From an uncultured Candidatus Saccharimonas sp. (lineage in GTDB: Bacteria > Patescibacteriota > Saccharimonadia > Saccharimonadales > AQU-01): DNA of 64,000 bases. Made by a program: the position numbers and the translations under genes. Where the stretch lies: positions 82,842 to 146,841 of the forward strand of contig CALRGT010000001.1 of the NCBI GenBank assembly GCA_943358095.1, written 5' to 3'. The notes below the pieces were generated by a model. That model saw only the letters and a list, made by a program, of their open reading frames with translations, made no database searches and had not been told where the DNA came from. Each line of letters starts with the position of its first letter. Positions within the stretch are counted from its first letter, which is position 1. Shown in pieces: positions 6,875 through 32,821 of the stretch.

Positions 6875-7081
6875 CTATTCACCTAGTTGAGTTGCGGCAA
6901 TAACAGCACTAATCAAAATGAATGCGCCGCCAAAACCGTAAAGAGTATATGCTGCAGTTCCGCCAGCAATCCAGCCAATAGCAACTAGAGCTAGTCCTGC
7001 CAATATTAGAAATGTCGAACTAACAATAATTCTACCGCCCAATTCGTATGCTTTGTTTGTTGATTTTGTTTTCTTAGCCAT
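6875..7081 (-). CDS. Small two-TM membrane protein
   Basis: 68 aa, Gly/Ala-rich hydrophobic helices, Lys-rich N-terminus. Confidence 0.55.
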   Translation of the reverse strand: MAKKTKSTNKAYELGGRIIVSSTFLILAGLALVAIGWIAGGTAAYTLYGFGGAFILISAVIAATQLGE

Positions 7082-30343: not shown

Positions 30344-30763
30344 ATGCTTAAATCTGCTAAAATACCTCTAATGGATACAGCTACCGATAACACCAAAACT
30401 GTACGCAAAGTCCTCTGCGTTGAAGACGAATTCTTTATTAGCGAGCTATACTCGCGCGCCCTTACAAGAGGAGGTTACCAAGTTGAAGTCGTGACAGATG
30501 GACTAAAGGGACTAGCTATGGCTATGACCAACGACTACGACATAATCTTGCTCGATATTATGGTGCCGAACATGACTGGCATAGACATACTCAGACATCT
30601 TAGAGAAGAAAAGGCCGATTTGCGGGCGAAAATTATTATCACGACGAATTTAGACCAGGGTAAAGAGAACCGCACAGATATAGAGAAACACGCTGACGGA
30701 TACATAATCAAAGCCGAGATCACTCCAAGGCAACTTGTTGAATTTTTAGATAACATCAAGTAG
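30344..30763 (+). CDS. Single-domain response regulator (CheY-like receiver)
   Basis: VLCVEDE, DIILLDIMVPNMTG, IIITT and ADGYIIKA motifs. Confidence 0.85.
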   Translation: MLKSAKIPLMDTATDNTKTVRKVLCVEDEFFISELYSRALTRGGYQVEVVTDGLKGLAMAMTNDYDIILLDIMVPNMTGIDILRHLREEKADLRAKIIITTNLDQGKENRTDIEKHADGYIIKAEITPRQLVEFLDNIK

Positions 30764-30772
30764 ATTATTTTT

Positions 30773-30795
30773 GTCCCCTGAAGGGGACTTTTTTT
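30773..30795 (+). terminator. Intrinsic terminator after the response regulator
   Basis: GTCCCC-TGAA-GGGGAC followed by seven T. Confidence 0.8.
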
Positions 30796-30797
30796 AT

Positions 30798-31016
30798 GCC
30801 ACTTTTGTCTCGGCAAAAGATGGCGCAAAACCGAGGGGCGGTGGCGACAACTCGATATAGCTTCCGAACAAGAAGCACAACACAGCCTGCGGAACTTGTC
30901 CTATCGGACTTCAGACAGTCCTCGGCAGGTAGTGTTGTTGTGCTCTTATCGGAAATCTATTTCGGGTCGTCACCAAGCCCCGTAAAAGACCATGGATGCC
31001 CGCTTAAGGCGGGCAT
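30798..31016 (+). ncRNA. Candidate structured RNA: 5' hairpin (30798-30824), long imperfect rod (30831-30983), 3' hairpin (30996-31016)
   Basis: Arms 30831-30889 and 30924-30983 pair almost continuously (GGGGC/GCCCC, GGTG/CACC, GCGAC/GTCGT, TTCCGA/TCGGAA, GCACAACA/TGTTGTGC, CCTGC/GCAGG). The 76-aa ORF here is probably spurious. Confidence 0.45.
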
Positions 31017-31032
31017 TAATTATTAACTTAGG

Positions 31033-31040
31033 TGTATAAT
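31033..31040 (+). promoter_or_regulatory. -10 element TGTATAAT of the Y-family polymerase cassette
   Basis: GGTGTATAATT directly after the 30996-31016 hairpin; the identical 11-mer occurs at 10727-10737. Confidence 0.5.
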
Positions 31041-31332
31041 TGGGTTAGTTATGTGAGTACTTTCATTCACGTGGATTTTTACTCGCAGGCTTTATTAGAT
31101 AGAGAGGCATACTCACTGAACGCCAAATGGCTTCACGTCACTGCTAACCTCAAACACATCTCGTTCAACTGACGCAGCAAGGGCTTTTGCGCTACTTCTG
31201 GTCACACGGATAATTTAAACAATACAGTTTAAATGTCCTCTTTATTATTTGTTTTTAATACATTTTCGGGCACCAAAAATACCTACAAAACACCGTAAAC
31301 TATTCTACTTAATCCTTGAAAGGATCTTAATT

Positions 31333-31599
31333 ATGCGCGAGAAAATCAACGAAGAAGTATCTGTAATTATGTACTATAGCTCGACTAAACGCCTGGCTGT
31401 GCCGCATTTAATCCGCTGGCAAAACCGCGAATATCTGGTCGGCAAGATCGGCTACCACCACACTGTTATGGAAGGCCGAGTACTGCACCACATCTACGAA
31501 TTAGCCGATAAAAATCAAGCTCTGTGGTTTAGATTGAACCTCGATACGAGTAATTTGCACTGGAGACTGGAGGCAGTTAGTGATGGAAACGCCAATTAA
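31333..31599 (+). CDS. Small protein, paralog 3 of the polymerase-associated family (88 aa)
   Basis: ATG preceded by AAAGGA. The 3' end overlaps the polymerase start by 20 nt. The ORF-track start at 31249 (TTG) is probably an over-extension. Confidence 0.6.
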   Translation: MREKINEEVSVIMYYSSTKRLAVPHLIRWQNREYLVGKIGYHHTVMEGRVLHHIYELADKNQALWFRLNLDTSNLHWRLEAVSDGNAN

Positions 31600-32821
31600 C
31601 TACAACCCGCCTATGATGATGCACATCGACCTAAACTCCTGTTTTGCCATAATCGAACAGCAGGCCAACCCTTTAATTCGCAACAAACCAGTAGCGATTG
31701 CGGCCTACGACACGCCCAGGGGTATCATAATCGCTTCTAGCTACGAAGCCAAAGCTTTGGGCATAAAACTTGGCGTTAGCGTTCGTGACGCTCGCTTGTT
31801 GTGCAGGGACGTCATAGTGATGACACCCGACCCAGAAAAATACTTTGATGCACATCGTCGATTCAAGCGAGTATTACAAAACTACACGGACTCGGTAACG
31901 CCAAAATCAGTTGACGAATTTGTTATCGATTTCCGCGGCTCACCAGCAGTAAAGCGAGGCAAAAGTTTGCAAGAAATCGGTTTTGAAATTAAAAGCGACA
32001 TCAAGCAGGCTATCGGTGAATATGTAACGGTTAATGTCGGAATTGGACCTAACCGCTTTTTAGCCAAATTAGCAGCTGGCTTAAATAAACCTGACGGCCT
32101 GGACACTATTAATGGCGATAATCTGCGCGAAACCTACGCAAAACTTCAACTCATCGATTTGCCAGGAATTAACACTCGCTACAGTGCTAGACTAAATGCC
32201 GCCAATATTTACACGCCAATACAGTTTCTTGACGCACCCATGCCACTACTCAAGAAAAGGGTATTCAAAAGTGTCGTTGGATTCTATTGGTATTTGCGGT
32301 TGCGAGGACATGAGATTGATCAGGTTGACTTTGGCCGCAAAAGCTTTGGCCAACAATATGCGCTAGGCGACAAAACTTCTGATCCAGAACAATTATCACG
32401 CCTACTAATGAAGCTCTGTGAAAAAGCTGGCCGGCGTCTACGAAAGGGTGGCTACGTGGCTGGCGGAATACATCTTTGGTTGAATTTCGAGAACCGCACA
32501 TACTACGCTCAAGGCAAAAAACTACATAGAGACATCTACTCAACTCAGGATATTTATTTGGCAGCTCAAAGAATTTTAAGCAACGTCTCTATTCCGGCTC
32601 GCGTCACCAATATTGGCGTCACCGTCATCGACTTACACCCTAGCAATCCTGAACAACTAGGGCTATTCGACGACAGCCGACTAGACACCCGCAGTCTGGC
32701 TCGAGCAGCCGACTTAATCAACGATCGCTACGGCGAGTTCACGCTAGTGCCAGCCATTATGGCTAATATGCAAGACACTGTTTTGAAGCGAGTAGCTTTT
32801 GGTAGCATCCGCGACCTATAG
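31580..32821 (+). CDS. Y-family (translesion) DNA polymerase, DinB/UmuC-like
   Basis: MHIDLNSCFAIIEQ, SYEAKALGIK, SVDEFVIDF, VNVGIGPNRFLAKLAAGLNKPDG and LPGIN motifs. Confidence 0.88.
   Translation: MMETPINYNPPMMMHIDLNSCFAIIEQQANPLIRNKPVAIAAYDTPRGIIIASSYEAKALGIKLGVSVRDARLLCRDVIVMTPDPEKYFDAHRRFKRVLQNYTDSVTPKSVDEFVIDFRGSPAVKRGKSLQEIGFEIKSDIKQAIGEYVTVNVGIGPNRFLAKLAAGLNKPDGLDTINGDNLRETYAKLQLIDLPGINTRYSARLNAANIYTPIQFLDAPMPLLKKRVFKSVVGFYWYLRLRGHEIDQVDFGRKSFGQQYALGDKTSDPEQLSRLLMKLCEKAGRRLRKGGYVAGGIHLWLNFENRTYYAQGKKLHRDIYSTQDIYLAAQRILSNVSIPARVTNIGVTVIDLHPSNPEQLGLFDDSRLDTRSLARAADLINDRYGEFTLVPAIMANMQDTVLKRVAFGSIRDL

Follow-up and report, generated by a model that had tools for sequence, protein, structure and literature searches.

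A long hairpin upstream of a Y-family polymerase cassette in a Saccharibacteria genome as one copy of a widespread, unannotated family with a near-invariant apical motif

Judged from sequence comparison, the long hairpin at 30798–31017 of the window (the whole 64-kb stretch of Saccharibacteria DNA analysed in this study) is one 'type a' copy of a widespread, unannotated family of stand-alone elements of about 200–230 nt. Our results show the architecture of the element, its conservation and covariation, its spread at the level of phyla, its independence from the polymerase cassette next to it, the lack of a linked gene, and its variable presence at the orthologous site. We give an about even chance to the reading that the element is a stand-alone structured small RNA presenting an invariant docking motif.

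Structure of the element in the window

The first-pass annotation had described a rod-like imperfect hairpin, richer in GC than its surroundings. Both points hold, with the coordinates essentially as first given. The GC content of the segment is 0.51–0.52, compared to 0.39–0.43 in the flanks. The RNA fold of 30760–31030 reaches a ΔG of −114.6 kcal/mol, versus a shuffle mean of −75.3 ± 5.0 (z = −7.79), and none of the 200 shuffles folded as well. The 76-aa ORF predicted here, already doubted as a coding sequence, proved spurious: it has no Pfam match, and its sole 'homologue', an ORF of 45 aa, was itself called over a different copy of the element. From 5' to 3', the element consists of a 5' hairpin, an A-rich linker, an irregular rod of about 55 bp, the apical motif and a 3' hairpin, as follows (window coordinates, + strand unless stated otherwise).

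30798–30824: S1, the 5' hairpin of the end module, GCCACUUUUG / CAAAAG(A)UGGC with loop UCUCGG (RNA fold); on the + strand its 5' strand is the pyrimidine-rich GCCACUUUUG and its 3' strand the purine-rich CAAAAGAUGGC
30825–30830: A-rich single-stranded linker, GCAAAA on the + strand and UUUUGC on the − strand
30831–30835: S2 (CCGAG), candidate pseudoknot partner, complementary to the S1 loop bases CUCGG at 30809–30813
30835–30884: 5' arm of the rod (fold and family alignment)
30886–30925: apical region as a whole (RNA fold)
30886–30896: 5' half of the apical motif, CCUGCGGAACU, nearly invariant
30897–30910: variable cap hairpin with flanking bases, GUCC-UAUC-GGAC in the window copy
30911–30925: 3' half of the apical motif, UCAGACAGUCCUCGG, nearly invariant
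30926–30981: 3' arm of the rod (fold and family alignment)
30986–30995: tail AAGACCAUGG, conserved only in the Saccharibacteria/CPR-type subgroup
30995–31017: terminal GC-rich 3' hairpin, AUGCCCGC-UUAA-GGCGGGCAU
31028–31031: synteny breakpoint, where homology to the polymerase-cassette block of loci L001 and L015 starts

The apical core, CCUGYGGAACU and UCARACAGUCCUCGG around a variable hairpin, gave more than 120 exact metagenome matches among the matches listed, with a search pattern that allowed 8–38 nt between the two halves. RNAalifold paired GCCUGCGGAACU with AGUCCUCGGC and left the bulges and UCARAC unpaired. Variants of the 5' half are CCUCCGGAAC in L146A and CCACGGAAC in the L137 partner, and the cap hairpin varies freely between copies in both length and sequence. 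The alternative GUCC/GGAC pairing noticed at the apex does exist in the window copy, but is not a feature of the family: one GUCC is part of the invariant motif, and the remaining GUCC/GGAC pair forms the variable cap hairpin, whose sequence differs between copies. A near-invariant core of about 29 nt, carried by a 55-bp helix with strong covariation, implies that the element has a conserved molecular partner and a function that has yet to be named.

At the other end of the element, S1 was detected in at least 52 of the 125 copies listed, at 56–68 nt from the apical motif, with compensatory changes at 7 of its 10 pairs (14 sequences). The linker is purine-rich in every copy and unpaired in 14/14 folds. 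The S1 loop covaries with bases 3' of the linker (GGCGCA/TGCGCC, GCAGCC/GGCTGC, AGGC/GCCT, TCGCC/GGCGA, CTGAC/GTCAG, GCAG/CTGC), which indicates a pseudoknot, and the sequences thus point to an end module of the type hairpin–linker–pseudoknot. This is reminiscent of H-type groove pseudoknots (SAM-II and preQ1 riboswitches, telomerase RNA, ENE triple helices), where a loop pairs beyond a homopurine or homopyrimidine linker. Here too, the linker mirrors the purine strand of the stem in informative copies; in the mirror-repeat test this was seen only in copies with internal G's. The − strand would allow U.A-U and C+.G-C triples, and hence may form a triple helix. However, the stem of our element is much longer (10–14 bp), and no family model matches it.

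The two hairpins bracketing the rod had been called terminator-type, a label that fits neither of them well. S1 is not terminator-like: no U tract follows it, and its loop bases CUCGG complement CCGAG beyond the linker. The 3' hairpin keeps its position while its sequence covaries (GCCCGC/GCGGGC versus UGAUUG/CAAUCA versus UGAUCGC/GCGAUCA), and is followed in the window copy by AUUAAUUAUU, with a weak U tract. The terminator scan of the window region returned only the RR (response-regulator) terminator at 30773–30788, which abuts the 5' hairpin, and neither of the flanking hairpins. Clear intrinsic terminators or a good U tract occur in some copies (L086, L095, L139), without family-wide enrichment: terminators were found in 10/94 cases on the motif strand versus 18/94 on the opposite strand, so that terminator enrichment was negative as a test of strand. 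The conserved tail AAGACCAUGG is present in the window copy, L020a/b, L033, L102, L139, L077, L095 and L146A/B.

For the window copy, the promoter scan found no promoter entering the element, and neither strand has a convincing one; the strong extended −10 promoter at 31033–31040, TGTATAAT, is that of the polymerase cassette. The flanks are conserved at a fixed distance in the Bacteroidales-type subgroup. A conserved TTTG box upstream of the gut copies was considered as a Bacteroidota promoter, but its spacing to a TAnnTTTG-like box is wrong and we therefore do not rely on this interpretation.

Covariation of the rod and conflicting strand signals

Rod sequences diverge freely while their pairing is kept. 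In total, 88.2% of the aligned cells were paired, compared to 59.6% in shuffles and 34–50% in slid controls. The type-a consensus rod has 54 pairs, with all four Watson–Crick types at most positions and double-sided changes at 49 of the 54. Compensatory cells numbered 814, against 245 ± 15 in shuffles, a level reached by 0/500 shuffles. The architecture recurs, with different rod sequences, in two more copies from an unrelated context. A giant palindrome was also considered, and was rejected because the arms end at ~25–115 nt.

The paired columns contain 83 G.U mismatches versus 93 A.C and 178 other mismatches, and, counted per type, transitions outnumber transversions among the mismatches only about twofold. 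There is no G.U tolerance on either strand. For an RNA helix maintained by selection, it is unusual that G.U does not exceed A.C. One U.G pair is invariant in the five type-a sequences (alignment A4, columns 21/141), and at this position U.G is also the commonest pairing in the wider family (15/32 informative cells).

The initial assignment to a + strand RNA, which was based on G.T pairs, did not survive the family comparison, in which G.U and A.C are about equally frequent and the cap loops favour the − strand. Strand indicators conflict. The − strand of the window is favoured by the cap loops (GNA, GNRA, UUCG) and by folding energy, whereas the + strand is favoured by the conserved U.G and by the occasional terminators. 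On the strand opposite to the motif, the triloops are GNA in 17/21 cases and the tetraloops GNRA or UUCG in 5/22. The sequence GCGAAGC, of the GNA triloop type, is a classic, very stable DNA mini-hairpin. Taken together, this is an odd signature, with no wobble tolerance, DNA-type cap loops on one strand and RNA-type features on both.

Distribution, neighbours and orthologous sites

Carriers of the element belong to at least four phyla: Saccharibacteria, recognised separately, and Bacteroidales (Rikenellaceae), Elusimicrobiota and Deltaproteobacteria, which were assigned from neighbour proteins. The GC content of carrier contigs ranges from 0.34 to 0.64 among the matches listed. Membership of the family is defined by the end module, the rod and the apical core, and the window copy has all of these modules (164.6 bits with model R1; nhmmer E = 3e-52). 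The cmscan search of Rfam proposed in the first-pass annotation gave no family for any copy: with Rfam 15, at gathering and permissive thresholds, the window copy and ~40 others yielded only tRNA and rRNA above threshold, and scattered miRNA-type hairpins and unrelated families below it. A full-text literature search with the core sequence on both strands and with descriptive terms returned unrelated primers only. Resemblances of the element to the hairpin-ribozyme substrate, to segments of E. coli 6S, M1 and tmRNA, and to 16S helix 45 consist of short strings, which we take to be coincidence.

Outside these carriers, a scan of viral contigs with the core pattern gave no matches, and blastn of the minimal core gave no match in E. 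coli genomes. When the window, gut-type and high-GC copies were compared by blastn with plasmids and phages, the only match was on the 962-kb replicon of Ilyobacter polytropus, and covers the 5' module alone. The gut copies might have been FopS sRNAs, a candidate that we rejected because size and architecture are quite different; the FopS/GibS sRNAs of Bacteroides are 65–70 nt long, with a single-stranded 5' seed (R1) and a terminator hairpin (PMC11697453).

Copy number differs between lineages. A copy count had been suggested to tell a multi-copy MITE from a single-copy element. In the lineage of the window the element is single or low copy: the 64-kb window has one, and 19 related loci of 13 kb have none. 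In Bacteroidales it is present in multiple copies. Copies frequently occur in pairs or clusters. Those within one contig are 60–80% identical, with compensatory changes, and within one genome they are old and diverged copies rather than near-identical bursts. The earlier suggestion of a MITE relic does not fit this pattern, as terminal repeats, target duplications and near-identical dispersed copies are all missing. In Saccharibacteria, even distant members retain two paralogous types (a and b) next to each other, and the element is syntenic downstream of an HK-RR operon or upstream of pyrG at 58–83% HK identity. This retention and synteny argue for gene-like vertical inheritance.

The neighbours of the copies are unrelated housekeeping genes, and there is no orientation bias relative to the flanking genes. 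Among 142 non-redundant neighbours we found no recurrent mobile-element enzyme, reverse transcriptase (RT), transposase, HUH nuclease or integrase, and the neighbours of other copies contain no conserved cluster or linked enzyme.

A cis link to the Y-family polymerase cassette had been considered possible. Yet the cassette occurs without the hairpin in L001 (96% nucleotide identity; blastn 95.7% from window position 31028) and in L015 (blastn 80% from 31031), and the hairpin occurs beside pyrG without the cassette in L020 and L146. As far as these loci can tell, a functional link between hairpin and cassette is refuted. The order RR – truncated element – cassette does recur in L145. Across orthologous sites the element is full, truncated (L145), absent (L147) or has its rod cleanly deleted (L143), which indicates from sequence that it is dispensable there. 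Rearrangement junctions coincide with the element (window 31028) or fall within its 5' arm (position 7188 of L145), and no target duplications were seen at the junctions of L145, L146 or the window. The conserved non-coding segment 31031–31330 was considered as a convergent partner and rejected; it is kept only in the closest relatives and folds weakly.

Possible nature and meaning of the element

The idea of an independent sRNA, raised in the first-pass annotation, stood in so far as the element is discrete, conserved, non-coding and structured, and not part of a gene. In the small-RNA reading, the element would be a non-coding RNA gene acting in trans, with transcription from one of the two strands. 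Its irregular helix of ~55 bp would hold out the near-invariant asymmetric internal loop CCUGYGGAACU / UCARACAGUCCUCGG, just below the variable cap hairpin, as a docking site for a conserved partner, which may be a protein or an RNA. The hairpin–linker–pseudoknot module, possibly with base triples, would lock and protect the other end. The adjacent polymerase cassette would not be regulated by the element. The long palindrome would make the locus fragile as DNA, which would explain why junctions lie at or inside the element. An invariant core with covarying stems and a capped hairpin of variable length is the pattern of riboswitch- or ribozyme-type RNAs.

Such a small RNA would resemble orphan structured RNAs that comparative genomics has revealed in bacteria, such as raiA, ROOL, GOLLD, OLE and HEARO, which are also stand-alone and intergenic, with an invariant core amid covarying helices, variable-length capped hairpins, a pseudoknot, spread across phyla and no obvious cis target. 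It differs from them in having no Rfam 15 model, in being a simple rod rather than a multi-junction structure, and in its lack of G.U tolerance. It also shares size and rod shape with 6S RNA and Ms1, which are rod-like RNAs of ~180–300 nt that bind RNA polymerase, are poorly conserved in sequence while their structure is kept, and have two paralogues in some genomes. However, our element has no RF00013 match and only small bulges instead of a large central bubble. Its 5' and 3' ends do not pair to close the rod, and an additional pseudoknot module lies outside it. Moreover, it is multi-copy in Bacteroidales and carries an invariant apical motif, which is absent from 6S.

A less probable but serious alternative is that the element is a quasi-palindrome at the level of DNA, which works or persists as a single-stranded hairpin or cruciform, with its apex read by a DNA enzyme acting in trans. 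Its arms would be kept complementary by template switching or hairpin-templated correction rather than by selection on an RNA, and REP/REPIN elements, integron attC sites and single-strand initiation sites would in principle be its analogues. Arm-to-arm correction, or selection on both strands, predicts what we observed: G.U and A.C are equally rare, and transitions exceed transversions only about twofold. The GNA triloops on one strand (e.g., GCGAAGC), the lack of general promoter or terminator signals, the variable presence with junctions at 31028 and inside the L145 arm, the clean deletion of the rod in L143, and the paired or clustered copies all agree with this explanation as well.

Comparison with the known DNA elements is less favourable to it. 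REP and attC sequences are confined to a lineage or are conserved at no part of the hairpin but its base, whereas a near-invariant asymmetric core of ~29 nt is common to four phyla here. REP/REPIN elements, mobilised by RAYTs, and MITEs are likewise intergenic hairpin repeats amid housekeeping genes, often paired or clustered, tied to rearrangements and not in need of an adjacent enzyme. Yet REPs are species-specific with conserved hairpin ends, in contrast to our element, with its variable arms and an apex that is kept from phylum to phylum; we saw neither conserved ends around a variable spacer nor a high-copy master, and copy number in Saccharibacteria is low. No RAYT (Y1 HUH transposase) recurs among the neighbours of the copies. 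Unlike REPs and MITEs, the element is low-copy in the lineage of the window, its copies are old and divergent, and IS-type terminal inverted repeats, target-site duplications and many near-identical copies are all lacking. Integron attC sites, which act as a folded single strand and sit at gene-cassette junctions, share a conserved structure with a free sequence. Our element is much longer, however, with a conserved apex and a pseudoknot module, and it has neither a recurrent integrase nearby nor the R''/R' core sites (RYYYAAC/GTTRRRY) of attC; at its base, the rod reads GGGGC/GCCCC or varies between copies. Further points against a DNA-level element are the lack of a recurrent transposase, HUH nuclease or integrase nearby, the absence from plasmid and viral collections (apart from the 5'-module match in Ilyobacter polytropus), the syntenic vertical inheritance in Saccharibacteria, and the covarying pseudoknot and the GNRA and UUCG caps, which are typical RNA features.

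The first-pass annotation also speculated about a retron-msd-like role. In a dual-strand version of this idea, or another form of reverse-transcribed element, transcription of the motif strand would give an RNA whose end module recruits an RT from another locus, and this RT would copy the rod into a hairpin of single-stranded DNA. Pairing would then be needed in the RNA template as well as in the cDNA, and the symmetric pairing constraint on the two strands fits this prediction. In its layout, a small structured end module with a long imperfect hairpin behind it, the element resembles msr-msd, and the stable DNA-type GNA caps are found on the complement of the putative transcript, which carries the conserved U.G and the occasional terminators. 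Retron RTs, however, are normally encoded beside msr-msd, and no RT was found near the window copy or recurrently among the 142 neighbours. An RT acting in trans seems unlikely given the small Saccharibacteria genome, and a conserved apex is not a retron feature. A pairing of the a1/a2 type is possible in the window copy, between the U-run before S1 and UAAAAGA after the rod, and is inconsistent in other copies. The idea thus lost its adjacent RT, and survives on its fit with both-strand pairing only as an improbable alternative.

We regard it as more improbable still that the element is a cis-acting part of its neighbours, either as a terminator or insulator of the RR operon or as a leader or promoter of the small-ORF/Y-family polymerase cassette. 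Its position between the RR terminator and the cassette promoter, and the gene order in L145, would suit such a role. Yet the cassette lacks the element not only in L001 and L015 but also at other polymerase loci, and L020, L146 and over 100 further contexts among the matches listed carry the element without the cassette, in either orientation and beside unrelated housekeeping genes. A chance palindrome or functionless lineage-specific relic has next to no probability: although the element is dispensable in L143, L145 and L147, chance is effectively refuted by the fold (z = −7.8), the massive covariation and more than 120 copies among the matches listed with an invariant core in at least four phyla.

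A wider claim, which we hold tentatively and at somewhat below even confidence, is that the family represents a phylum-spanning, previously unrecognised class of functional nucleic acid with its own dedicated and conserved trans-acting partner. Such a class could be a new ribonucleoprotein RNA in which the helix is necessarily perfect Watson–Crick, or it could be an element that uses both strands, for instance as an RNA copied into hairpin DNA or as a single-stranded DNA hairpin recognised by an enzyme. With either option it would make sense that an invariant apex goes together with massive covariation and a lack of G.U tolerance.

For the window itself, our results remove the supposed regulatory link to the polymerase cassette. 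Structured elements that span phyla yet fall outside Rfam are now rare, and the odd pairing and loop signature of this one raises the question whether it acts as an RNA, as a single-stranded DNA structure, or as both. The family also matters to genome annotation, as it accounts for spurious small ORFs and for breaks in assembly or synteny at the loci where the element resides.

The hairpin element and the polymerase cassette

The first-pass annotation described a long, nearly fully paired rod flanked by two shorter hairpins, and this was correct in substance. The region 30760-31030 folds at -114.6 kcal/mol, compared with -75.3 ± 5.0 kcal/mol for dinucleotide shuffles (z = -7.8); the 200 shuffles were all less stable. 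A chance palindrome is excluded. The reported GC excess was borne out (0.51-0.52 vs about 0.40 in flanking DNA), and the overlying 76-aa ORF, doubted from the start, has no Pfam match and is not a real gene. No Rfam 15 family matches the element.

Parts of the window copy, from sequence reading
30798-30824, end-module hairpin
30825-30830, linker GCAAAA
30835-30884 and 30926-30981, rod arms
30886-30925, apical region
30986-30995, tail AAGACCAUGG
30995-31017, GC-rich hairpin

A further proposal, that the hairpin is a cis element of the downstream polymerase cassette, did not survive comparison. None of 19 related loci fetched via the Y-family polymerase carries the hairpin. In two of them, homology with the window begins exactly at 31028 (L001, 95.7% DNA identity) or at 31031 (L015, 80%), and in each case an unrelated coding gene runs as far as GGTGTATAAT, the conserved extended -10 promoter. 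Hence, the cassette exists without the hairpin. An action in cis on the cassette or on the upstream response-regulator (RR) operon is contradicted by the comparison between genomes, and we consider it extremely improbable.

The extended -10 promoter TGTATAAT at 31033-31040 is strong, and ~290 nt of non-coding DNA follow (31031-31330). This stretch is more conserved than coding sequence among the window, L001 and L015, is missing from more distant cassette-bearing relatives, and folds weakly (z about -2 on either strand). Possible identities are a long leader, a decayed gene and a lineage-specific RNA. The small ORF before the polymerase (31333-31599, 88 aa from ATG 31333; polymerase 31580-32821) has no Pfam match, and its equivalent in the related locus L145 (7822-8175) weakly matches Peptidase_S24 (UmuD/LexA-like). 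In the window, the small protein is perhaps an analogue of UmuD, either divergent or truncated, or else a different kind of protein.

A widespread family with a common architecture

The spurious 76-aa ORF served as probe for relatives. L020, a locus found via a 45-aa ORF, holds two further copies, convergent and adjoining pyrG, which share one architecture with the window copy and have wholly different mid-rod sequence. From the apical core common to these three copies we derived the family pattern CCTGYGGAAC-N8-38-ARACARTCCTCGG, which matches the window once (expected 0). In metagenome contigs, more than 120 copies were found among the matches listed, from gut, marine, soil, sediment and digester samples and contigs of 34-64% GC. 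Their neighbouring proteins point to Bacteroidales/Rikenellaceae, Elusimicrobiota and Deltaproteobacteria as carriers, in addition to Saccharibacteria, the group of the window's own genome. A slightly stricter pattern, with one extra base per end, had no match in 2.9 million viral contigs.

The true family is broader than this pattern, because copies with other apices exist. In a 962-kb replicon of Ilyobacter (Fusobacteriota), six places match the hairpin-linker-pseudoknot end module. At the one inspected (L141; Ilyobacter polytropus pILYOP01, NC_014633.1 about 223.9-224.1 kb), the end module leads into a long rod as in the family, but the apex differs, which suggests that the end module defines a superfamily. 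In L137, a Bacteroidales-type locus, the convergent partner copy has the variant apex CCACGGAACUCG...CUCAAACACCGGG. Bacteroidales-type copies, such as those of L137 (8596-8800 and 9130-8900), lie within a larger conserved unit with ~50 nt conserved upstream, including a TTTG box; the consensus of the 23 aligned gut-type copies contains this downstream partner sequence with column identities of 50-80%. In the Saccharibacteria-like L033 (842-1306), the element lies ~90 nt downstream of 5S rRNA, on the strand of the 23S-5S operon. Ends of contigs or stored loci often fall inside or beside the element (e.g., L056, L062, L064, L072, L081, L118, L122, L127), suggesting that the palindrome breaks assemblies and is possibly under-represented in MAGs.

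The end-module hairpin has a pyrimidine-rich 5' strand and a purine-rich 3' strand, and is followed by a 6-10-nt purine linker and then by 4-6 nt that complement its loop. This complementarity covaries (GGCGCA/TGCGCC, GCAGCC/GGCTGC, AGGC/GCCT, TCGCC/GGCGA; in the window, CUCGG/CCGAG), a sign of a pseudoknot. At least 52 of the 125 listed copies have the module, 56-68 nt from the core, and its hairpin shows compensatory changes at 7 of 10 pairs (14 sequences). The linker may mirror the hairpin's purine strand, as it does in those copies whose internal G's are informative; such a mirror would allow U.A-U and C+.G-C triples on the window's - strand.

Rod arms range from 25 to 115 nt. The rod of type a, a Saccharibacteria type that includes the window copy, has 54 pairs, 13 of them compensatory among only 5 sequences, plus an invariant U.G. 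At the apex, GCCUGYGGAACU is predicted to pair with AGUCCUCGGC except at two bulges, a C.U mismatch and an unpaired UCARAC; above it is a cap hairpin unconstrained in length and sequence. In the Saccharibacteria/CPR type, the tail AAGNCCAUGG precedes a hairpin of covarying sequence. In independent folds, all 14 members tested adopt the scheme.

Searched with a covariance model of type a, 100 sources gave 67 matches. Aligned to the model, which inflates pairing, 88.2% of pairing cells are standard pairs, compared with 59.6% in column shuffles and 34-50% with slid partners; the independent folds and a MAFFT-only seed agree with this alignment. It has double-sided changes at 49 of 54 pairs and 814 compensatory cells against 245 ± 15 expected, a value reached by none of 500 shuffles.

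Genomic setting and rearrangements

The element has no linked gene. Its neighbours are housekeeping genes without a recurrent cluster: the 142 non-redundant neighbours span 199 Pfam families, each in at most 3 proteins, with no recurrent reverse transcriptase, transposase or recombinase. Its orientation shows no bias with respect to the genes on either side. Copies are often paired, convergent or tandem, as in L020, L102, L137, L139, L146, L025 and L070, and Saccharibacteria have kept both paralogous types, a and b, alongside one another. The site after the RR gene can be compared across relatives because the block GluRS-DUF3048-HK-RR (HK, histidine kinase) is conserved.

Content of the site after the RR gene
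Window: complete element followed by polymerase block
L146: element A, 164-aa ORF and convergent element B, followed by pyrG
L145: element A cut off after 78 nt, followed by S24-like small ORF and Y-family polymerase block
L143: end module and rod base only
L147: nothing

By this comparison, the element is inherited vertically at the site among deeply diverged relatives (HK identity 58-83%); it is also dispensable and sits at a fragile, recombination-prone point. L145 and L146 encode an identical HK protein and share 99.97% DNA identity up to a break (7189 in both) inside the 5' arm, ~14 nt before the core. Past it, the sequences diverge abruptly: L145 enters the polymerase block, and L146 has the remainder of the element and pyrG. 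The two samples represent a structural polymorphism within one species, and its junction lies in the palindrome.

The 164-aa ORF of L146 (7350-7844) has faint P-loop (AAA_18/AAA_17) similarity, and the two elements around it share ~100 nt upstream at 80% identity, so the layout resembles a cargo gene between inverted repeats. L143 holds a 'mini' derivative (6985-7075) with end module and tail kept and rod and apex cleanly deleted (CTCGGGC-AGTTAAC-GGGCCCC), a form consistent with palindrome excision.

Structured RNA or DNA hairpin

We favour, at about even odds, the reading of the element as a stand-alone structured RNA, whose apical internal loop would be a docking site. This reading draws on the core invariant across phyla, the covarying stems, the variable capped hairpin, the pseudoknot, the lack of a linked gene and the absence from phages and plasmids. 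Orphan structured ncRNAs, among the nearest known kinds, show the same evolutionary pattern. 6S RNA has a similar rod shape, but its central bubble is absent here.

The main rival, a DNA-level hairpin or cruciform, is possible though rather unlikely. Paired columns contain 83 G.U and 93 A.C mismatches, with 178 others (122 vs 147 in a cruder census), and transitions are only about 2x transversions per mismatch type. Since G.U is no commoner than A.C, wobble pairs are not tolerated on either strand. This is atypical for RNA helices, and fits two-strand selection or arm-to-arm DNA quasi-palindrome correction. On chemical nature and strand alike, the evidence conflicts. In favour of the window's - strand, opposite to the strand carrying the core pattern (motif strand), it folds more stably in 101 of 125 listed copies. 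Its triloops are GNA in 17 of 21 cases (e.g., GCGAAGC; P about 1e-17) and its tetraloops GNRA or UUCG in 5 of 22 (P about 9e-4); the motif strand has none of these caps. In favour of the motif strand (the window's +), the conserved U.G is on it, unpaired positions there are slightly A-richer and a few copies (L086, L095, L139) have good intrinsic terminators.

Transcription signals are otherwise lacking: terminators show no overall enrichment (10/94 on the motif strand vs 18/94 on the opposite strand), and, since the RR terminator directly adjoins the end module, no convincing promoter was found for the window copy. The GNA caps, these missing signals, the lack of wobble tolerance and the rearrangements all favour DNA. 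Against it stand the apex invariant across phyla, the old and divergent copies, and the lack of a mobile-element enzyme. REP/REPIN and attC are also hairpin DNA elements, but theirs are conserved at the base and lineage-specific.

A retron-like dual-strand element would explain the symmetric constraint on both strands, and the layout resembles retron msr-msd; we regard it as very unlikely because there is no reverse transcriptase. A possible likeness to triple-helix pseudoknots is limited to the end module. FopS sRNAs are 65-70 nt long and of unrelated architecture, which rules them out for the gut copies (PMC11697453). Text searches with the core sequence of either strand, which figure-only or otherwise unsearched descriptions could escape, returned nothing relevant, and within the literature searched the family is undescribed.

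The element is thus real, conserved and independent of the polymerase cassette, and it belongs to a widespread family that lacks annotation; whether these elements are RNA, ssDNA or both, and which strand is functional, can be tested directly.
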